The notes under the pieces are model-generated. The model was not told the origin of the DNA and ran no database searches. It saw only the letters and a program-made list of their open reading frames with translations. This document shows positions 3,006-63,130 of a DNA stretch of 64,000 bases, piece by piece. Origin of the DNA: a virus. The translations under genes were made by a program, and so were the position numbers. The stretch is taken from IMG/VR virus record IMGVR_UViG_3300045988_098681; one strand, 5' to 3'. Position 1 is the first letter of the stretch. Each line of letters begins with the position of its first letter.

Positions 3006-3547
3006 CAAGCGAACAATCAAAATTTGCAGAAGAAAATATTCGCCTCATGTATCGCTATTTCAACATGCACAACATTACAAACGAGGACGATAAAGCAGAC
3101 TTGTTTGAATACTATTGTAAAGTAATTGAATGTTACGATGATAAAAAAGGAAAATTCAGCACCCTGCTCTATTTTTCCCTTGACAGATATCGTAGACATA
3201 TTTATAATTATAAGTATAATAAGTGTAGATTTTCTGATAAGCCGAGTATATCTTTAGACTCAACTTATGATGACGAAAACGATTGGCTACAAGAGCTAGT
3301 TTGTGAAAGGGACGTTGATATTGAGTTTGTGGAGTTCTTGGATATTTGTGAGCGTGTTTATGATAAACTTGCAACTAAGAAAAATAGTTACAATCGAAAA
3401 CTCGAAGATAGAGAACTCTTTACAATGCTCTTGGCAGGCTACACGAGAAAGGAGATTGGCAATATGTATAATATCTCACAACAAGCATTGTCTGTGAGGA
3501 TTAACAAAATTAAAGCAATTTTTTATAAGGAAATGGAGGAATGTTGA
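3002..3547 (+). CDS. sigma-70 family factor, paralog of the preceding gene
   Basis: 'ENIRLMYRYFNMH...KGKFSTLLYFSL' plus 'LLAGYTRKEIGNMYNISQQALSVRINKIK'. Same architecture as 2406-3005. The start is 2993 or 3002. Confidence 0.65.
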   Translation: MTSEQSKFAEENIRLMYRYFNMHNITNEDDKADLFEYYCKVIECYDDKKGKFSTLLYFSLDRYRRHIYNYKYNKCRFSDKPSISLDSTYDDENDWLQELVCERDVDIEFVEFLDICERVYDKLATKKNSYNRKLEDRELFTMLLAGYTRKEIGNMYNISQQALSVRINKIKAIFYKEMEEC

Positions 3548-4852
3548 TGAGAGTAGAAGAATGGCTTGGCGAAGATAATAAGATTGGGTTAGATATTTGG
3601 CACAAAAAGTATCAACATGGCAATGAGACATTCGATGAATGGCTTGATAGAGTAAGTGGAGGTGATAATGACCTAAGAGAACTCATTAAAAGTAAAAAGT
3701 TCTTATTTGGTGGCAGAGTGCTTGCGAATCGAGGTGTGCCAGATAGTGGGAATTTTTATAATTGCTTTTCTGCCGGATATGTAAAAGACGATTATGCAAG
3801 TATTATGGACGTATTAAAAGAAGTTGGTATTACGTTCAAGTATCAAGGTGGTCAAGGAATCTCCATGTCGAAACTTCGTCCAAAAGGAACAAAAATTGGC
3901 GATAATTATGAGTCAGATGGTATTGTTCCTTTTATTGAAATGTTCAATTCTGTCACTAAAGGTACTTCGCAAGGCGGTGCAAGAAAAGGTGCTTTGATGA
4001 TTAGCTTAGACATCAATCACAAAGAAGCCGAAACATTCATCAAGCTAAAAACTGATCTTGACGCTGTAACAAAAGCGAATCTCTCTATGGAAATAGACGA
4101 TGAGTTTATGACTGCGGTGCAAGAGTTCTACTATGATGGGACAATAAAAACATTACATAAGAGATACAACTACAATGGGCATGTTGTGGAATATGATATT
4201 ACGCCGATTGAATTGTATAAATTGATGATGGAAGTTGTATGGGACTACGGGGAGCCGGGGTGTATCTTTGTAGACGAATTTAGGAACAACAACTTTTTAG
4301 AGCTTGATAACGAGTATCAAATAGAAACTTGCAATCCATGCGGAGAACAACCATTAAAAGCTCGTACAAGCTGCTTGCTTGGCTCATTAAACTTATACGA
4401 GTTTGTTGAAAACAAGTTTACAAGTGATGTGTATTTTAACTTTGAGGAATTTGCAAAAGCTATTAAAGTAGCCTCAAATGCACTTGATAACATCATCGAA
4501 GAAAATGCTCCAAGGCTTCCTAAAGAACTGGAGCAATACAAACAAAACGCTTATGATTGGCGTAATATGGGGCTTGGTGTATTCAACTATGCACACATGC
4601 TCATGGCTATGGGGCTTAAATACGGTAGCGAAGAAGCGTTGGCTTTTACTGATACGCTATTTTACACTATGATGATAGAAGCCATTATATCAAATGACGA
4701 AAGGGGCAAAGAAAAGGGTAATTATCCAAAGTTCAAAGGCGGGTTAGTACAAAAGTCCACGATGTTTAGAAACCATGCCCCCGAAGAACTTTTACAAAAC
4801 GGTGCGCTACATGCTAGAAATTGCACGTTGTTATCTATCGCGCCAACTGGAT
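3547..4852 (+). CDS. nrdJ: class II (B12-dependent) ribonucleotide reductase, exon 1
   Basis: GGAGGA RBS at 3535-3540. RNR active-site motif 'CNPCGEQPL'. The ORF breaks right after 'LLSIAPTG', with a stop 3 codons later. Confidence 0.8.
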
Positions 4853-5155
4853 TAACACAATAGGTTCAGTATAAACTATTTTAATTGCTGGAAACCCCTT
4901 AGAGCTACTTAAACTACAACGTAGGTATGAAATAAAACCAAGCGTGAATGTCTGAAAATTAAGTAGATTGGGCAATCAGCAGCTAAGACTCGAATAGAGT
5001 AAAGTTCAACGACTATCCCGCAAGGGAGTACACAATAAGCAAGAAATGATTGTGGAAAAGGATAGATACTATTTATAGTATAAGATATAGTCTATTCTTA
5101 TAGGAAACTATAAGCAGTTATATAACGGCAAATGTCTTGCGAACATTTGTGAATG
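4853..5155 (+). ncRNA. group I self-splicing intron (ORF-less, ~303 nt)
   Basis: R-like core 'GTTCAACGACTAT' at 4994-5006 and S-like core 'AAGATATAGTC' at 5082-5092. A 7-bp P1 pairs exon ACTGGAT (4846-4852) with GTTCAGT (4864-4870), with U.G at the splice site. The intron ends on G5155 and the exons join in frame. Confidence 0.8.
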
Positions 5156-6171
5156 TAAAAACTATTGCAACGATGGTAAATGGCGCAGGAGGGGTTGAGC
5201 CTGAGTTTGCCTTATCCTACACTCGTAGAACAGACAATTTAGATGAATCCTACAAGATTGAGTCAAACATCGTAAAAGAATATCGTATAATCACAGGCAA
5301 CACAGGCGAGCTACCAGACTATTTTGTATCAAGCGCAGACATCCATTGGAGAGACAGAGTAAAAACGCAATCTGTCATTCAAAAACATATTGATACAGCA
5401 ATTAGCTCAACTGTCAACTTACCAAAGGAAACTACCAAAGAAGAAATCGAGGAACTATACTTATACGCTTGGATTTGTGGGTTAAAAGGAATTACAATCT
5501 TTAGAGATGGGTGCAAAAGACTTGGCATTCTCACAACACAAGAAGATGAAGCTACGCAAAGTGAAAAGCCTAAATCAGAACTCACTCGTGGAACCATTCT
5601 TTCTGTTTCCGACGACTTGATTGGCGCAAAAAGAAAATTGAATACAGGCTGTGGGTCTTTGCATTTTGAGGTATATTTTGATGAAGTGACAGGCGAACCA
5701 CTTGAAACCTTTGTAAACGTAGGCTCTAGTGGTGGATGTGAGAAAAACTTACAATTCATTTCTCGACTCATCTCACTTGCCCTTAGAGCAGGTGTATCAA
5801 TCGAGGATATTATCGACCAATGCAAGTCAATTAAACCTTGCCCTGCATATGTATCTAGGACTAATAAAAAACACGATACAAGCAAGGGATCAAGTTGTCC
5901 TAGTGCCATTGGATATGCGTTAGAGGATTTGTATGACAAAATCAAAGAACGATGCTTTGCGGATTTTGATTTAGAAGATGGTTATGTTGAACCATTGACA
6001 ATCAGTTCACCTGCAATCAAAGAATCAGATAAGGTTGTAAAAACAGGTGCAGATGGTCAAATGATTATTAAAAACTCTGATTGTATATGTCCTGAATGTG
6101 GAGAACCTTTAGTATTTGAGGGTGGTTGTAACCAATGCAAGGCTTGTGGTTTGTATAGTAATTGCGATTAA
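5156..6171 (+). CDS. nrdJ: class II ribonucleotide reductase, exon 2
   Basis: Continues '..(L)KTIATMVNGAGGVEPEFALSYTRR..'. C-terminal CxxC...CxxC zinc ribbon 'CPECGEPLVFEGGCNQCKACG'. Confidence 0.8.
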
Positions 6172-6976: not shown

Positions 6977-7423
6977 ATGGGAAAATATATGGATAATGCA
7001 AAGTTATTACATGATTACCTTAAATCGATACAAGTTGGAAAGGGGAATAAGATGAAAGATAAAATTATTTACACTAAACCATTAGAAAAAACAGAATATG
7101 GAGGCACTTTATCGCCATTTTATATAAATAATACATATGGAACATTGGGCAATAAAGTATATATTGAAAAAGTCCTCTACAACAATCCTGCCACAATCGT
7201 ATTTTGGAGCGATGGAACACAAACGCGCAACATCTGCCCAAAAGAAACACTCTACAACCCAGACACAGGGCTTGCATTTTGTGTCCTTAAAAAGTTCATG
7301 GGTGGCGATGAGATGGCTAAGTTGTTCAATGATTGGGAACTCAAAGACTATCGTAGAGATAAAGGTAATTGGGTTGAGCTAAAAGATGTAAGAAAAGCGC
7401 ATAAAAAAGAAAATAATGCTTGA
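6977..7423 (+). CDS. hypothetical protein
   Basis: 148-aa ORF. Its ATG abuts the preceding stop (TAAATG). Confidence 0.5.
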   Translation: MGKYMDNAKLLHDYLKSIQVGKGNKMKDKIIYTKPLEKTEYGGTLSPFYINNTYGTLGNKVYIEKVLYNNPATIVFWSDGTQTRNICPKETLYNPDTGLAFCVLKKFMGGDEMAKLFNDWELKDYRRDKGNWVELKDVRKAHKKENNA

Positions 7424-51002: not shown

Positions 51003-51300
51003 ATATGGATGCAGGTACTCGACACTCCCCTTAGCTAAATCAAAGGATTTTAGGTGGCGATAGTTCAATAACTTATTTGCCTAACATGTGCAAACAAGTT
51101 TATTCATGCTCAGCCACCTAGAACTTTCATTAAGAAAAATTGTTGGAAACGACAGGACTCGACGTTACGTTCAACTAAAAAAAGTTGATTCCTTATTCAT
51201 CGTGCTCTGTTTTGCCGAAGCTATTCCAGTTGGTATAGCACTCCAAAGGCTTAAATTCCCATGTAGCGATTTGGTACATATATGTAGTCACTTCTAGTTG
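51003..51300 (-). ncRNA. putative TnpB omega RNA (reRNA) / transposon right-end region
   Basis: ORF-free 3' flank of tnpB. Nested stems TAGGTGGC/GCCACCTA (51051-51058/51113-51120) and CTTATTTGC/GCAAACAAG (51072-51080/51090-51098). The single non-Watson-Crick pair is A-C on the + strand and G-U on the - strand. Confidence 0.4.
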
Positions 51301-52425
51301 TTAAACTACATATTTCATTAAATTGATTGCTGCGTTGTAATCACGATCTATTACGGGACCGCATTCTGGACAGACGTAGATTCTGTCGCTGAGCTTTAGG
51401 TTTGACTTAATCGTTCCGCAACAAGAACATGTTTTGGAAGAAGGGCAGAACCGATCTACCTGTACGAACTCGATCCCATTCCACTCACACTTGTATTTCA
51501 TCTGACGAACAAACTCATAAAAGCATTGTTCCTGAATTACTTTTGACAGGTGTTTATTCTTCATCATTCCAGACACATTAAGGTTCTCCATGACGACCCG
51601 ATATGGACGCATAAATACGAGTTTATGTGTTGCTTGATGAATATGATTTTGTCTTGTCATTGAAATGTGATAGGAAAGTTCTCGAATTTGTTCTTCGACT
51701 TTAAGAATATTAGCCGTCTTTTCAAAATTACCATTTTGATAATACTTACGAGAAACTTTACGTTGAAGGCGCTTCAATTTCTTTTGCTTTTTCTTCATGT
51801 TGGAAGTTTTGTTAATGTTCTTAATGACAATATTTTCATCGCCAAAAGCTACACTACAAAGCGCTTTGATTCCAAGGTCAATACCCATGGACTTATTTGT
51901 CAGCTCCAATACTTGGTTCTCACACTCAAAGCCAACTGTTAAAATCCATTTCTTATTGACATATGATATTCTTGGATTGTAAAATTTTGCTTCTTTTCCT
52001 AGTGGGACATTGTAGTTTGTCCGATATTTTACTTTACCGAGCTTTGGAATTGTTACAGATTCTTCGGTAAAGTAAGTTCCATCGTTTCTGATTGGATAAT
52101 TAGGTTTCGATTTCTTTTTACTTTTAAATTTAGGAAAACCTGCGCCACGAAAAAAGTTTGAATATGCTTTATCAAGGTCTCTTAATGTTGTTACCAAGCT
52201 CGCATTTAAAACTTCATTAAGCCAAGCATATTGTTCTTCTTTTTTCAATGGAGTGAGTTTCTTGATAAGATCAAAAGATGATAATTTCTTGCCGATGGAA
52301 GAGTATTCCACTTTTTGAATCTCTAATCCCCAATTCCAGATAAACCTACAACACCCAATGTGTTTCCACATCAATTCTTCCTGCTCCTTAGTTGGGAGCA
52401 GTCTGATCTTGTACGTTTTCATCAT
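51301..52425 (-). CDS. tnpB: TnpB (IS200/IS605-family RuvC-like RNA-guided nuclease); no tnpA nearby
   Basis: N-terminus 'YKIRLLPTKEQEELMWKHIGCCRFIWNWGL', RuvC D 'GIDLGIKALCSVA', E 'VVMENLNVSGM', zinc finger 'CSCCG..CPECG', final 'IDRDYNAAINL'. Strong AAGGAGGT RBS. Confidence 0.85.
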   Translation of the reverse strand: MMKTYKIRLLPTKEQEELMWKHIGCCRFIWNWGLEIQKVEYSSIGKKLSSFDLIKKLTPLKKEEQYAWLNEVLNASLVTTLRDLDKAYSNFFRGAGFPKFKSKKKSKPNYPIRNDGTYFTEESVTIPKLGKVKYRTNYNVPLGKEAKFYNPRISYVNKKWILTVGFECENQVLELTNKSMGIDLGIKALCSVAFGDENIVIKNINKTSNMKKKQKKLKRLQRKVSRKYYQNGNFEKTANILKVEEQIRELSYHISMTRQNHIHQATHKLVFMRPYRVVMENLNVSGMMKNKHLSKVIQEQCFYEFVRQMKYKCEWNGIEFVQVDRFCPSSKTCSCCGTIKSNLKLSDRIYVCPECGPVIDRDYNAAINLMKYVV

Positions 52426-53530
52426 TTACCTCCTTTTCTTTAAGATTTTATGAAAAGGAGAGTGGCGGGAACTTACCCCGCACATGCGTTTCTCTCTTGT
52501 TGAATATATGAGCGAGACTTTGGGAACCGTTTTTACCTATCGACATCAGCATAGTGGTATTCAACGTTATCGAGTATGCTCCCGCCTTGCCATCTTCCAA
52601 TGACTGAAAATCTCGCAGAAATCTTAAGTTATTTTACTAAGCTAAACAACTAAATAACATGTGCCATGAACCTTCGTTCTACCTTCCACAATCATCGTCA
52701 TATTCAACCAGTAAGTAGACAAGTCTGTGCCACAGGGAGCTACCCTATGACATCTTGCCTAGATGGAAACCATCAAATCTTACAAGGGGCTCTTTCTACC
52801 CTTAACTTTCACAAAGCATTCAGAATTATTTTCTTCAAATCTTCATCATTTGACATCATTTGACTTGTAAAATTACTACAGTCATTGCTTTTTGCTACTC
52901 GTACCTTGACCCTATCTTATACTTTGTCTTTCGACAATCTCACAGCAAACTTCCTTAGTGGCACTTCCGTACTTATGCCGCTTGCCACAGCGACACAGCC
53001 CTCGGATTCGGCTTACGCTTTTAACGCTTAGCTTCTATTGTGGAAGCGATAGGACAGTGTTTTTAACAAGGATTGCTTTAGCACACACCCCCAGAACCAT
53101 TCTATTCATAAGTGGCATCTTGCATCTCACAATGCAAGCCTTTGACCGTTACCAAAGCTATCGTTTTGGCTAGGCTATTCTTACCCGCAGGTGGGTAGTG
53201 TTCTCTGCACCATGCTCTTGGTCTACACAGAGTTATGGCACACATTATTTAGTTGTCTAAAAATGGCTACGGGATTGAGTACCGCCCTCAACAATAGTCG
53301 GGTCAAAGCCGACTGCGTTCACTTGTTCGCCATCCCGCAATATTTGGTTGGTATACGATTGAAACCATATACCAACCGTAAGGAAAAAAATATGAAAAAA
53401 GCGTTTTTCTTTTTTATTGTGGCGCACCAAATAAATTTTATGGATGTCCTTTTAGGAGGTAAAACACAAAAAACAGAAAGGTTGGTTTTAGGTGCGCCAC
53501 TCGAATATTTTGTTGTTTTCTCTCTTTACA
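52426..53530 (-). ncRNA. candidate large structured non-coding RNA (class unassigned)
   Basis: ~1.1 kb downstream of a perfect consensus promoter with no ORF >=60 aa on the transcribed strand. Many stems: 53419-53428/53491-53500 (10 bp), 53346-53355/53368-53377 (10 bp), 53296-53301/53309-53314, 53119-53125/53132-53138, 52958-52963/52983-52988, and GTC-GAAA-GAC at 52926-52935 (GNRA only on the - strand). Confidence 0.35.
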
Positions 53531-53536
53531 CTTTTC

Positions 53537-53565
53537 ATTATATAGAGATGCTTGCATTTTGTCAA
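53537..53565 (-). promoter_or_regulatory. perfect consensus sigma-70-type promoter (TTGACA-17-TATAAT) on the - strand
   Basis: Reverse complement reads TTGACA (53565-53560), then 17 nt, then TATAAT (53542-53537). It lies just downstream of the stop of gene 53581-54723. Confidence 0.7.
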
Positions 53566-53580
53566 GCAAAATTTCAAATT

Positions 53581-54723
53581 TTACAAATTTATTTTATAAG
53601 TACAAACATCATTGTCAAACACTTGTAAAACTTGATAAGGTTTTGTATTACATCTCAAGCTCATAGCAAACTCGTCAATGCCCGATATAGACCCATTGAC
53701 TACAATCTCTGTACCATTGTCATCTTTTATGTTCATGTGATGAATATGCCCAAAATAAATTCTATCCGGCACTTTACCAAGTAAATTAACAGAATGTAGT
53801 TTAATATTTGACAAAGAATCTTTATCCCCATGTGTCATAAAAACTAATTGGTCTTTTACCTTAAATGTGATCCAATCCTCTAACCCATTCATGCAAACTC
53901 TCACATTCGGCAACCTAAGTTCAATATGCTTAAAAATCAATCTTTCAAAATTTTCAGCAGGCATATTTGATTTCTTATCGGCATTTACTCTTGAGTGATT
54001 TCCAATAACTCCATAAACCTTGGCTTCTGGAATATATGCCTTGAGTCCATTGACAAAGTTAGCCAAAAGTTCTCCGACATTGATAACTTGTGTAATCAAA
54101 TCTTCTTCCGCAGCGATACGACTTTGTAAATGAATTGTGCCACTAATCAAATCACCTGCTAATCCGAGGTGTAATTTTTGTACCTTATGTAGTTGACAAT
54201 AATAGATTGTTTTCTTGAGCAAAGTTTCTAAACGTTCATTGGCAATATCTACATTGTACTCGTTTAGAACATTATCTATTAAAAGTCCATAGTGAAAGTC
54301 AGACAAGATAAGAACCGCCTCTACATTGGTAGAATTTGGTTCATGCACACTATTGAGTTTTAATGGCTCAATATCTTCAATCGCTTTTACCATTAAATCC
54401 TCTAGGTGTTCATATCTTGCACTTTCTCTAAGCAACTTGTTATACTCACGCTTTTGATCTTGCACTCTGCACTTCTCTTTATAAAGTTCTTGGCGCAAAG
54501 TTTCTAACCTAGCAGATTCCTCGCTTGTATATCCTTCTTCGAGCTTTTCAAGCATATACTTATATACTCGATAGCCACAATAGCGACCGCCAGCAAAAGA
54601 TTTCCTTAAAGAGTCAGGGTGAACATCTAGTTCAAGTTCATCTACCATCTCTTCCCAATCTTTATTCGTTGTTCCTTCTACTTTATCTACGAGCAAATCA
54701 AGCTCGTCTTGATAATTTCGCAT
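53581..54723 (-). CDS. calcineurin-like metallophosphoesterase (Mre11/SbcD-type nuclease candidate)
   Basis: Motifs in order: 'LILSDFHYG', 'GDLISG', 'GNHSR', 'THGD', 'GHIHH'. Confidence 0.7.
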   Translation of the reverse strand: MRNYQDELDLLVDKVEGTTNKDWEEMVDELELDVHPDSLRKSFAGGRYCGYRVYKYMLEKLEEGYTSEESARLETLRQELYKEKCRVQDQKREYNKLLRESARYEHLEDLMVKAIEDIEPLKLNSVHEPNSTNVEAVLILSDFHYGLLIDNVLNEYNVDIANERLETLLKKTIYYCQLHKVQKLHLGLAGDLISGTIHLQSRIAAEEDLITQVINVGELLANFVNGLKAYIPEAKVYGVIGNHSRVNADKKSNMPAENFERLIFKHIELRLPNVRVCMNGLEDWITFKVKDQLVFMTHGDKDSLSNIKLHSVNLLGKVPDRIYFGHIHHMNIKDDNGTEIVVNGSISGIDEFAMSLRCNTKPYQVLQVFDNDVCTYKINL

Positions 54724-55511: not shown

Positions 55512-56117
55512 TTATGTGGTTTTTTGAAAAATTTTGAGCAAATTACTAGGGTTTATTGTATATAAAGTTTTCAATAAAAGCACTTTATTCTTATCTGTTT
55601 TGGCTTTAGACTTCCTGCCATTTCCATCTAAATTTACCCTTAAATGAAAAGCTCTATCTATAAGCCAACTAAACAATCCAAGATAATCTTTTGATATATA
55701 TACTCGTTTAATATCTTCTACCATATTCTCAAAATCTTCTCGTAATATTAAATCGTCCTCAATATCATCAATCGCATTTTGGTATAACCTCAATCCATAA
55801 GCCTCTATAAACGCCTCAACTTTTTTAGATTTTCGTCTGTCCTCTTTGAGTTGGTGATGGTTGTAAAAATAACACATCGGCAAAGTTGACTCATTTGAAC
55901 GTATTTTAGGTGGTTTATAGTCAAAAAGTACATTCATAGGACATTGGAGCTTGTTGTTAATTTTATCTTTTGGTATGGCATAGTTTACATAAAGCCAAAA
56001 GCGTGGATATCCATTATGTTTTACATTAAGTTCTTGTTTTATGCGCCGTATTTCTGAGTTTAGGTCGATATCGTAAGTGCGCTTTGCATTGTCGATAGCA
56101 GCCTGCATTTGTTTTAT
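55512..56117 (-). CDS. YonO/RdRP-like polymerase candidate, exon 2 (junction approximate)
   Basis: The frame is open upstream of ATG 56108. An in-frame join '..ILSVVA|IKQMQAAIDN..' is possible. Confidence 0.45.
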   Translation of the reverse strand: MKQMQAAIDNAKRTYDIDLNSEIRRIKQELNVKHNGYPRFWLYVNYAIPKDKINNKLQCPMNVLFDYKPPKIRSNESTLPMCYFYNHHQLKEDRRKSKKVEAFIEAYGLRLYQNAIDDIEDDLILREDFENMVEDIKRVYISKDYLGLFSWLIDRAFHLRVNLDGNGRKSKAKTDKNKVLLLKTLYTINPSNLLKIFQKTT

Positions 56118-56381
56118 CTCTGGCTCTTTATCCAGAGCTTCTTTAAGTTTCCTTAAAGTATCGGACTATATCTTCACCATGCACTTTCGTGTTTAGGTGT
56201 TCAGCACTCGTGGGGGGATTATTGCTAGTTCTGCTCACCCCCTAGTCTCTGAGCCTTCCTATCTACTAAATGAACCTCGATAGGTTTGGCATATGGTTAG
56301 CATATGCTTTTGCACTTAGCTTTCCACTATTCACTGAATATTTTTTACTAAATGTTTCCACTTAGCTGACCCATTTTACTA
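56118..56381 (-). ncRNA. group I self-splicing intron (ORF-less, ~264 nt; boundaries approximate)
   Basis: On the - strand: an R-like 'GGCTCAGAGACTAG' (56242-56255), an S-like 'AAGATATAGTCC' (56163-56174), then a CTTTAAG-GAAA-CTTAAAG hairpin (P9-like) and a GCTCT..AGAGC hairpin before the proposed 3' splice site. Confidence 0.7.
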
Positions 56382-58337
56382 AGCCACTACACTCAGAATA
56401 CACACATAATCATCATACTCTTTGTCTGTAAAACTATATCCATAAGTCAACGCAAGCTGCGCAAGATTACTAGACTCACCTATTGCCATTTGTGCTTTGG
56501 CAAGGTTGTTGTCTATAACGGCGTGATTGTACATGGATAAGTCATAATGATTTTTTTCTTTTGGAATGTTGTTTACAATGGTTGGATGGTTTATGTAGCA
56601 ATATTTGGCGTAGTCGGCAATGTCATGTTGATTTGTTACAAATACTTGGTCAGAATCCCAGTCGCAGCCATTTAGTCGGTCTTGGACATCTGTGTGTTTG
56701 CAATTCATTGCAATACATTGCTCCCCAATATAAAAATATTTATCTAAAATATCGCTCTTAATATTTTTAAGTCCAATAATATTCGACTTACTATTGTGCG
56801 GGCTTCTAAATCCTGCTAAATACTCGTTTGCTCCAAACCTCTTTGTGTAACATTGAATACAATCCTGCTCTTGACCAAACGTATTGTCTTTTTCTACATC
56901 TTCACCCACACTATGTAATAACATGGCATAAGGAGAGCCAACCATTACTAAGTTATCACCCTCTTGCAACACTTTACCAAACTTTAGATTTTTTACATAA
57001 CCATCAATTATTTTTTTCTTCCTGCTCCTAAAATACTCACTTCGCACAAATTCTGAATCCTGCTCGCACAATGCGACCAAAACCTCGTAGTCATTAGAAA
57101 AGTTCTCATTGTCTCTAAGGTAGTCAAGGAACACATCATTGTCACTCTTTAGTTGTTCAACATACGATTTGCTTCTTGCAAGCACACCATCCATAATTTC
57201 AACATCAAGTGTGTTTATCATTTGGTAACTCATACGTTGAACGTCACCGTATTTGCTCTTGTGTGCAGTTTTAACTATTCCAAATTGACAATCATTCTCA
57301 TGGACTTTCTTACACCAATAGTCATACGATACGTCGAATTTTAACCACTTCATGGAATTATCTGTGGTTATCATCTTGATATCTTTTACATAGTGTTCAT
57401 TGCCCCACATATCGACAACTTTTGCACTTTTGTACTCATCGCCATACCAATCCCTAAAGAACCGTTGTATGTTCGTGTGAAAAGCAGCACACTTTGTCAT
57501 ATGATGTCTTAGTAATACATACCCCTCTCCCCACTTGGGAAAAATCGAATCGTCTATCAAGGCTTGCCCATCGAACAAGGTGTTTTTTAATTCGTAGTCT
57601 TGTATTCGCTTTGCATAACAATGTTTTTTTCCATCAATGCCAATACTCACTACTTCACGCCTAAAAAAACTATCCACATCTTTTAGTATCAATATATTTT
57701 CCGGCTCAATCCTCATGCGTCCAACTATCGTGCTTGCGATGAGTGACACATATGCACTTGCTTCTACTATCGGCGCATTATGCTTTGGAATCTTTAACCC
57801 CATATAAATAAAGTCGTGGGCTTTTTTATAGAGCCTAGAACAAATAAACATAACAGAACCTTGCTTCGCCTTGCCAGCAGAACGATAAAGCATTTTATAG
57901 TGTATTGTTTCTGTTTTCTTTATATTTCCTGCTTTGTCTTTGGTATGATATTTAATATTTATTCCATGTTCGTAATATTCAATTCGTATATCTTCTTTTC
58001 GCTTCTTGACGTACTTATCTCTATTTTCGTCTACTTTATTTAGTAAAAATTCTAATCTCTTTATTTTCTCCTCATCGTCAATTTCTTTTATCTTATTTAC
58101 AATGTTGCCCCTCGTGTCCTCATAACTCTTAGCTCCCATGTCAAAATTCAAGCATATTACATCTCTAGTGAAACCGTTCTTCGACACTTTAAGTCCATTT
58201 TCTAACAAGAAGTCTAAGAAGAGGCTATTTGTCAACATGGCATTAGTATATGGCAGATAATCTCTTGCGCCAAGATTATATTCATATAGTTGTCCTGCCG
58301 AAAAGTTCTTTATTCGTACACCATATTTATTCGTCAT
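56382..58337 (-). CDS. YonO/RdRP-like two-barrel RNA polymerase candidate, exon 1
   Basis: 'GFRSPHNSKSN...(~40 aa)...LNGCDWDSDQVFV' matches the 'RSP.H...GGD.DGD' spacing of the catalytic double-psi beta-barrel in QDE-1/YonO-type polymerases. The ATG at 58337 is preferred over the GTG at 58349. Confidence 0.5.
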
Positions 58338-58338
58338 T

Positions 58339-58509
58339 TTACCACTCACCCCATTGAAATCTTACACACTCATTATAATTAAAGTATCTATATAAAAAAT
58401 CATATTCTTGTTCTTTGTATTCTCTATTTAATCGTTCCTTTTGTGATAAAATGGGATAAACATGGTGACTCATTTCTTCCCAATAATCTTCTTTATCCCT
58501 ATACTCCAT
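58339..58509 (-). CDS. small hypothetical protein (56 aa; below the track cutoff)
   Basis: GGAGGAG RBS and ATG 58509. Stop overlaps the start of the next gene (TAAAATG). Confidence 0.4.
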   Translation of the reverse strand: MEYRDKEDYWEEMSHHVYPILSQKERLNREYKEQEYDFLYRYFNYNECVRFQWGEW

Positions 58510-62621: not shown

Positions 62622-63130
62622 TTCACACCTCCTTCCACAATGGTTATTATATGTATTTCTAATCAAATTGTCAATCATTTTTTTTATTTTTATCCACTTT
62701 ACTTTGCTAAAGTTTTTGACTATTGACTAAAAATTCTCTAAGCTACTTCCGTATAGATGTTTGTAGGTTTTTTAGTCAAAACTTACAACCACCTATCGTC
62801 TTCACTCATGCCCTACATGAGCGACAAGGGTTTCCGTTCGCTACGCTTACTGCACCTTGACCAGCCACTAACGTGTCTCACTTCGCACGTTGCTTGCTTA
62901 ATCTTGCTACGCAATCTTTTCGCATCGCTGCCTTAGCTCGTTTAGCTCACTTGTTTCTACTAATTTGTTCCTTAAAGCAACTCGAACTATCATATTGTAA
63001 CTTAATGTTTCTTGGTGGCTCAATGATCTATGGCTTATTGTATATATAATAAATATAAGTTAATTGGTTATAGCCATGAGTGAGCAGGGGCTCACATTGC
63101 GCATTCCATTGCTTACGCAATTCCATGCGT

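Follow-up and report, generated by a model that had tools for sequence, protein, structure and literature searches.

A predicted full-length ROOL RNA gene in the putative tRNA operon of a human gut phage

The viral DNA analysed here, a stretch of 64,000 nucleotides (nt) referred to as the window (IMG/VR record IMGVR_UViG_3300045988_098681), belongs to a tailed phage of roughly 100 kilobases (kb) from the human gut. At positions 52426–53565 it contains an interval of about 1.1 kb that a sequence-only reading, made without database searches, had put forward as a candidate giant structured RNA. We found that this interval is a composite, whose core on the minus strand (52643–53259) is a full-length ROOL RNA by every criterion that could be tested on its sequence; the core is flanked by the leader of a transfer RNA (tRNA) operon, a 105-nt element and the end of an insertion sequence. 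A ROOL RNA gene residing in a phage tRNA operon is the account that best fits the locus, and we hold it with high confidence. Along the minus strand, the features follow one another in the order promoter, leader stem, spacer hairpin, tRNA-Gln(UUG)-like cloverleaf, ROOL, 105-nt element, TnpB insertion and tRNAs.

A full-length ROOL match at the core of the interval

The whole window was scanned with Rfam 15, in which the ROOL model (RF03087) has a gathering threshold of 99.1 bits. This model matched the minus strand at 52649–53256 with a score of 269.5 bits and an E-value of 1.5e-60, covering model positions 1–574 of 574 without truncation. The Rfam match spans 608 nt and extends to 617 nt with the closing helix P1, a 25-nt long-range helix in which 52643–52667 pairs with 53235–53259 (inverted repeat I1). 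The gene bounds were placed at 52643 and 53259 because this long-range helix is the ROOL closing helix. ROOL RNAs have an average length of 581 nt, a long closing helix and many multistem junctions (PMC5737381), and the window copy resembles the described family (Weinberg et al. 2017, PMC5737381; Kretsch et al. 2025, PMC12286853) in its full-length model match, its size of about 600 nt and its long closing helix. The multistem architecture is seen in the Rfam structure line of this copy, and the minimum-energy fold agrees with it; the folding energy of the core is −196.7 kcal/mol (z = −4.2) for the minus strand, compared with −150.7 kcal/mol for the plus strand. The earlier expectation of a large ornate RNA of the GOLLD or ROOL type beside phage tRNA genes was thus borne out by the identity of the core. 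The accompanying suggestions of a possibly new class and of an RNA of about 1.1 kb did not stand, since the core matches a known family over its full length and the RNA measures about 617 nt.

Several conserved elements of the family were also recognized in the window copy. The conserved ROOL cores ACAAUAGA, GUACGAGUAGC, AAUUCUGAAUG...GUGAAAGUU and GGGUAGCUCCC are all present, and the copy shares with the family a GNRA hairpin, a variable internal linker and a phage location beside tRNA genes. The hairpin (TTGTC-GAAA-GACAA, 52937–52924 on the minus strand, inside ROOL) aligns to the ROOL consensus hairpin Gccga-GAAA-ucggC, and its GAAA loop is of the GNRA type on the minus strand only, exactly as had been noticed from the letters. 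The linker (52828–52886) is A/U-rich and is unaligned or variable in both the Rfam and the MAFFT alignments; it corresponds to the linker that is disordered and faces the inside of the cage in the structure solved by cryogenic electron microscopy (cryo-EM; PMC12286853). Within it lies a 10-nt tandem duplication, GTCAAATGAT twice at 52845–52864, which has no counterpart in the related loci L002 and L003 and is particular to the window copy. Pseudoknots have been described for the family, with three in the 2017 consensus (PMC5737381) and P10 and P13 in the structure (PMC12286853); the window bases aligned to the bracketed pseudoknot of the Rfam consensus are mostly complementary. No family-defining feature separates the window copy from ROOL.

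One further pairing was observed inside ROOL. Positions 52683–52692 are perfectly complementary over 10 base pairs (bp) to 53037–53046 (CTTCCACAAT/ATTGTGGAAG), which is no helix of the Rfam consensus and could reflect chance, an alternative fold or an inter-molecular contact.

The scan with large-RNA models, which the sequence-only reading had proposed, gave no match to GOLLD (RF01998) in the window, either at the gathering threshold or at E ≤ 1. GOLLD resembles ROOL in that it is large and ornate, occurs in phages or prophages close to tRNA arrays and forms an RNA-only nanocage, but its sequence and secondary structure are unrelated, and it assembles as a 14-mer whereas ROOL assembles as an 8-mer (PMC12286853). 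Across 52300–53700, the only other Rfam family at E ≤ 1 was Rev13 (E = 0.07), which was taken as a chance match.

Covariation and conservation of ROOL in related phages

For comparison, phage genomes of about 100 kb were fetched from IMG/VR and ENA metagenomes via the exonuclease gene upstream of ROOL. In every lineage with an orthologous exonuclease gene ROOL is found at the same position, except in L009, L174 and L175, and the ROOL scores of the related lineages (265–275 bits) bracket that of the window copy. A BLAST search against GenBank phages returned a sole match, MT837385, an unannotated record from human faeces that carries the window arrangement at 98% identity. Moreover, a conserved ROOL motif retrieved 13 further ROOL loci from unrelated phages, nearly all of them within tRNA arrays. 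Up to 8 tRNAs surround ROOL in the relatives.

The base pairing of ROOL was then evaluated on 14 full-length copies, which were aligned with MAFFT and for which pairs were predicted by RNAalifold. Compensatory changes were found in 55 of the 68 predicted pairs, and in the closing helix P1 all pairs (19/19) covary. Overall, 93.3% of the alignment cells pair, versus 37–45% when the partners were slid by 1–3 columns, and the observed pairing values were reached in none of 500 shuffles. Covariation among homologs, on which the sequence-only reading had staked its proposal, is therefore extensive for the ROOL core.

The same reading had named a decayed protein gene as the finding that would overturn it, and the explanation that the interval is such a gene with stems arising by chance now appears extremely improbable. 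A plus-strand GTG open reading frame (ORF) of 145 amino acids (aa) at 53191–53628, which the sequence-only reading did not mention, could be taken to favour it. However, because this ORF has no Pfam match and is frameshifted in L002, which has 97% nucleotide identity to the window, it is spurious and not a gene; nor is it conserved in L004 or L007. The longest minus-strand ORF within 52426–53565 encodes 57 aa, consistent with the earlier statement that none reaches 60 aa, and each frame of the interval on that strand contains 24–25 stops. Furthermore, the substitutions among homologs keep base pairs, not codons.

The G+C content of the interval is 0.406, and that of the ROOL core 0.42, compared with 0.362 for the window and 0.35–0.36 for the flanking genes, so that the increase previously judged by eye is real but modest.

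The promoter and the leader upstream of ROOL

A sigma-70-type promoter, TTGACA-17-TATAAT, is located at 53565–53537 on the minus strand. As the sequence-only reading had stated, it matches the consensus perfectly (12/12), and transcription is predicted to start near 53530. The exonuclease gene (53581–54723; Metallophos, phrog_284) lies upstream of it. Three perfect sites of this kind were observed in the 64-kb window, at 3180–3208 (+), 53537–53565 (−) and 62646–62674 (−), against 0.04 expected from dinucleotide shuffles. An equivalent of the promoter is present directly behind the exonuclease gene in L002–L008 and L171, and in every related lineage examined the promoter occupies the same place and is either perfect or an 11/12 match. 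An additional 11/12 site was seen at 53618–53591 (−), just upstream of the ROOL promoter and within the end of the exonuclease gene.

The 5′ part of the interval (280 nt, 53260–53536) is no portion of ROOL but the putative leader of a tRNA operon. The order of its parts is fixed across lineages, namely the promoter, a long-range stem, tRNA genes with spacer hairpins, and ROOL. The leader stem (53419–53500, minus strand; inverted repeat I8) is a perfect 10-bp helix between GTGGCGCACC (53500–53491) and GGTGCGCCAC (53428–53419). Every lineage has such a perfect stem in this place, the sixth pair being G-C in the window and L004, U-A in L007 and L170, and A-U in L171. The enclosed sequence is U-rich and not conserved, with a length of about 62 nt in the window and 62–74 nt across the lineages. 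A role in processing or stabilisation is possible for this stem; that it is a processing stem of the RNase III type is a guess. A small peptide starting with M-A-H and encoded at the leader stem was considered and rejected, as the frames, which begin within the 5′ arm, have 6–24 codons and show no conservation beyond the stem; any Shine-Dalgarno-like sequence lies 20–30 nt away, which also disfavours it.

The next element of the leader is the spacer hairpin (53346–53377, minus strand; inverted repeat I5), with a perfect 10-bp stem GGTTGGTATA...TATACCAACC. A homologous hairpin, GGTTGGTAT...ATGCCAACC, is found in L171 between a tRNA-Met-like unit and tRNA-Gln. L171 has the fullest leader, consisting of the promoter, the stem, the tRNA-Met-like unit, the spacer hairpin and a canonical tRNA-Gln(UUG), followed after an 8-nt gap by the Rfam ROOL match. 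The window leader is without the tRNA-Met-like unit, retains the spacer hairpin (53377–53346) and has a cloverleaf at the position of the tRNA-Gln.

A tRNA-Gln-derived cloverleaf abutting ROOL

This cloverleaf, derived from tRNA-Gln(UUG), occupies 76 nt at 53339–53264 on the minus strand. From its end to the first base of the ROOL closing helix the distance is 4 nt, and to the Rfam match it is 8 nt. Its minimum-energy fold is a cloverleaf with stems of 7, 3–4, 5 and 5 bp, the loop CUUUGAC with anticodon UUG, U33 and A37, as well as G73 and an encoded CCA. In position and sequence it is homologous to the canonical tRNA-Gln(UUG) of L171, and a comparison with three canonical tRNA-Gln copies showed that all four stems are kept although 9 of 20 pairs are changed on both sides; 94.9% of the cells pair in this comparison, versus 32–54% in slid controls. 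The T loop, however, reads GGCGGUA, which departs from the conserved T54-psi55-C56 (A58), and the D loop (ACAAGUGA) is without G18-G19. ARAGORN did not call the cloverleaf on the correct strand (default, ps90, ps80 and ps70 settings), and the Rfam tRNA model did not detect it in a 101-nt slice at E ≤ 10. Since there is neither an ARAGORN call nor an Rfam tRNA match and the D- and T-loop nucleotides are absent, the element at 53264–53339 was filed as tRNA-like, and its sequence indicates a tRNA-like element rather than a tRNA gene.

An alternative is that the cloverleaf functions in decoding as a tRNA-Gln(UUG) and has only the operon in common with ROOL, being neither its processing handle nor its partner; the ends of ROOL would then be set by other nucleases. 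We regard this as rather unlikely, yet the case for it deserves weight, as the exact 76-nt geometry, U33, the UUG anticodon, A37, the discriminator G73 and the encoded CCA are all in place, the stems are maintained by compensatory change, and canonical tRNA-Gln copies lie at or near the same place in relatives. What speaks against it is that a GGCGGUA T loop together with a D loop without G18-G19 leaves no elbow-forming nucleotides, and that the element is missed even by ARAGORN at the 70% threshold and by the Rfam model at the permissive cut-off. The two readings are also compatible, because excision of a working tRNA by RNase P and RNase Z would still define the 5′ end of ROOL.

A tight junction of this kind is shared within the phage group. 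The Rfam ROOL match begins 5–8 nt past the end of a tRNA or tRNA-like gene in the window and in L002, L003, L169, L176, L171 (the canonical tRNA-Gln) and L170 (a tRNA-Leu); in L170, ROOL comes 5 nt behind the tRNA-Leu, after six tRNAs. This phage group differs from ROOL generally in that the closing helix begins only 4 nt after a tRNA or tRNA-like gene, and in having the upstream consensus promoter and a covarying leader stem.

Non-canonical cloverleafs in which the T loop is of the GCG type (GGCGGUA, AGCGUUA) and the D loop of the AAGU type were observed at 53264–53339 of the window, at 7342–7417 of L004 and at 4837–4912 of L171. Their anticodon is UUG in the window and CAU in the relatives, with stems kept by compensatory change. 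The CAU cloverleafs are called tRNA-Met by ARAGORN, and none is among the Rfam tRNA matches at the gathering threshold.

A 105-nt element and a TnpB insertion downstream of ROOL

On the other side of ROOL, the 3′ 220 nt of the interval (52426–52642) appear, from the comparison with relatives, to be composed of phage backbone and an insertion-sequence end. The backbone part contains a structured element of 105 nt (GCGAGAUUUUC...AAAGUCUCGC) at 52616–52512 on the minus strand, between ROOL and the insertion sequence; the element is also conserved where tnpB is absent. Its parts are a closing stem (GCGAGAUUUU/AAAGUCUCGC), two hairpins in which compensatory changes occur and an invariant loop sequence (UGCUGAUGUCGA); 7 of its 33 predicted pairs are compensatory, among only 3 lineages. 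Without tnpB, the element is present in L170 (6893–7000, 91% identity, directly after ROOL) and L171 (5819–5925), and parts of it are found in L004–L006 (L004 8449–8550) and L169. It is absent from L002, L003 and L176, despite their 97%-identical ROOL. No Rfam match was obtained for it at E ≤ 1, and in 374 kb of fetched loci a covariance model built for it picked up copies in this phage group only. When IMG/VR was searched with two exact patterns, one matched only L004–L006 contigs and the other matched nothing. The element is possibly a small RNA. A −10-like box was seen about 7 nt upstream of it.

Downstream on the minus strand follow tnpB (51301–52425) and then tRNA-Asn, tRNA-Glu and tRNA-Trp. 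The sequence-only reading had correctly placed tnpB and three tRNAs on the same strand, but tnpB is not part of the conserved context. The gene encodes a protein of 374 aa with the Pfam domains HTH_OrfB_IS605 (PF12323), OrfB_IS605 (PF01385) and Cas12f1-like_TNB (PF07282), all above their cut-offs. The closest relatives L002, L003 and L176 lack tnpB; they diverge from the window at 52642 and rejoin it at 51162, and where the window has tnpB they carry a tRNA-like gene of about 100 nt. The gene is a recent insertion between the 105-nt element and the tRNAs, outside the conserved context, and only the window and MT837385 carry this insertion. In L169 (5575–5702) a remnant with an internal deletion persists, where the first 37 nt after ROOL are joined to the last ~29 nt of the RAGATH-18 region and the same flank. 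Of the ~100-nt tRNA-like gene, which is intact in L002 (8150–8272) and in L003 (Rfam tRNA score of 36 bits), the window retains only the 3′ 19 nt (51162–51144, TCGAGTCCTGTCGTTTCCA).

The ends of the insertion sequence were bracketed by comparison with relatives only; no close second copy was found. The homology to the window ends at 52506 in L171 and at 52515 in L170. Since L170, L171 and, in part, L004–L006 carry 52642–52506 without tnpB, the insertion sequence proper starts near 52505, and its probable left end (52426–52505, minus strand) includes, ahead of the tnpB start codon, a short hairpin (GGCGGGAAC.../...GUUCCCGCC). A start right at the ROOL 3′ end (52642), where L002 and L003 diverge, was rejected, as 52642–52506 forms tnpB-free backbone in those same lineages. 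The right end (51184–51249, minus strand) comprises a RAGATH-18 motif (RF03064, 63.1 bits) at 51189–51249, probably the omega-RNA scaffold, and terminates in ...GGAATCAAC at 51184; across more than 50 TnpB loci, nucleotides are conserved up to 51185–51189 and no further. With its TnpB bearing all three Pfam domains and RAGATH-18 just 3′ of the gene, the element resembles IS200/IS605-family TnpB elements with an omega RNA. It is distinguished by having no tnpA, and its best relatives share about 60% protein identity. Genome and viral scans for other copies yielded only relatives of at most 61% aa identity and no nucleotide similarity at the left end.

The arrangement raises the question of whether the ROOL copy is a functionless relic in an operon broken by the TnpB insertion. 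The insertion sequence does part ROOL from the tRNA array, and insertion plus deletion removed most of the ~100-nt tRNA-like gene present in L002 and L003. Nevertheless, the ROOL copy is intact over the full model and scores as high as the insertion-free copies, the promoter and P1 are intact, and MT837385, an independent metagenome record, has the same arrangement. These observations make a relic very unlikely.

The modular flanks also bear on the original idea that a single giant structured RNA of a new class spans the whole ~1.1 kb. Consistent with this idea, the promoter is single and strong, long ORFs are absent, folding of the leader by itself gives z = −4.3, and stems occur along the entire interval (52426–53565); an inverted-repeat scan recovered those listed by the sequence-only reading, including the two perfect 10-bp stems in the 5′ part. 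Some of these stems indeed lie within ROOL, but several belong to the leader stem, the spacer hairpin, the cloverleaf, the 105-nt element and the insertion end. In addition, a known family explains 617 nt over its full model length, the flanks vary independently among relatives, with the leader gaining or losing tRNA genes, the 105-nt element is missing from three relatives with nearly identical ROOL, and the 3′ 80 nt belong to an insertion sequence that the closest relatives do not have. Given the Rfam match and the modular presence and absence of the flanks, a single new-class RNA is refuted beyond any practical doubt.

Other features of the window and of related loci

The window contains the phage genes for a tape-measure protein, a terminase and the exonuclease. 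Two group I introns (RF00028) were detected. One (77 bits), at 56141–56390 on the minus strand, lies between the ORFs 56379–58349 (phrog_8308) and 55512–56108, which suggests that these ORFs form a split gene; several related phages have a group I intron at the same place. The other (73 bits) is at 4817–5114 on the plus strand, between the ORFs 3541–4863 and 5137–6171.

In L009, L174 and L175, no ROOL match was found behind the exonuclease gene. L174 has at 4711–4742, about 70 nt past the end of that gene, an abiF RNA motif (RF03085) whose score of 38.1 bits is barely over the threshold. In the unrelated ROOL phages, tRNA-array segments of about 90 nt (L010 187–276, L016 2050–2137, L018 5905–5994 and L023 6152–6241) score barely over the threshold for the 3′ part of OLE RNA (~53 bits, model positions 436–595), and an 83-nt segment adjoining ROOL in L015 (2471–2553) scores as transfer-messenger RNA (51 bits). 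Both kinds of segment are probably odd tRNA-like elements.

Discussion

Our analysis supports a ROOL RNA gene in a phage tRNA operon, for which the following course of production can be proposed. Transcription would begin at the consensus promoter just past the exonuclease gene and run through the leader, the cloverleaf, ROOL, the 105-nt element and the tRNAs. The host enzymes that process tRNAs, RNase P and RNase Z (or 3′ trimming), would cut the flanking tRNA and tRNA-like structures and so set free a ROOL RNA of about 617 nt that is closed by the long P1 helix. By homology with the solved member, the released RNA may fold flat and eight copies may assemble into a hollow RNA-only nanocage, with the variable A/U-rich linker oriented into its interior. 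We infer from these features that the promoter is used, that the transcript is processed at the cloverleaf and that this sequence assembles into the cage.

As neither the window nor L002 was found to have a same-strand terminator-like site on the way from ROOL to the tRNAs, ROOL would most likely be cut out of the transcript of the tRNA operon; in L171, the first such site comes only after the tRNA-Ser that lies past ROOL. Phage tRNA operons such as the tRNA cluster of T4 are known to co-transcribe small stable RNAs from one promoter, with no terminators between them, and to release them through tRNA nucleases. The locus described here is similar in its proposed single promoter, in its combination of tRNAs with a stable non-tRNA RNA and in the lack of terminators between them. 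It differs in that the non-tRNA product is a ROOL RNA of about 617 nt and that one tRNA unit is a non-canonical cloverleaf. Co-transcription of ROOL with tRNAs has been suggested by its discoverers (PMC5737381). Phages and prophages carry ROOL close to tRNA islands, and the RNA assembles as a homo-octamer into a nanocage whose interior contains a disordered linker (PMC12286853); for the member env-120, cryo-EM revealed a hollow homo-octameric cage of about 280 angstroms (PMC12286853).

Several points weigh against this proposal. Firstly, it is from the DNA alone that we infer transcript ends, promoter use and processing. Secondly, the cloverleaf is without the conserved D-loop and T-loop nucleotides, and may not be accepted by RNase P or RNase Z. 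Thirdly, the nearest upstream tRNA ends 70 nt from ROOL in L004–L006 and 189 nt from it in L007 and L008, so that tight abutment of tRNA and ROOL is not universal even in this phage group. Moreover, the cage has been shown for one member, env-120, which is only distantly similar in sequence to the window ROOL, and in this phage the TnpB insertion may have changed how the transcript is read through or processed on its 3′ side.

A more speculative view, to which we attach little probability, is that ROOL is made in this phage group as one module of a dedicated tRNA-operon transcript, and that its neighbours, the non-canonical cloverleafs with GCG-type T loops (tRNA-Gln-like here and tRNA-Met-like in relatives) and the lineage-specific 105-nt RNA, are no mere bystanders but functional partners of the ROOL cage, for instance as obligatory processing handles or cargo. 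If this were true, the 105-nt element would be a new small RNA class.

Overall, a new, unannotated ROOL member has been located in the textbook phage and tRNA-island context of its class. The tight tRNA-ROOL abutment, the covarying leader stem, the GCG-T-loop cloverleafs and the 105-nt element are minor leads, and the locus leaves the knowledge of the ROOL class unchanged. What it contributes is a further ROOL locus with well-marked limits, in which the promoter is clear, the leader is conserved and tRNAs define the boundaries. Together with the related gut phages, in which ROOL is abutted by tRNAs (the window, L170 and L171), separated from them (L004 and L007), absent from the site (L009, L174 and L175) or disturbed by the insertion (the window and MT837385), it provides a reasonable natural comparison set for ROOL.

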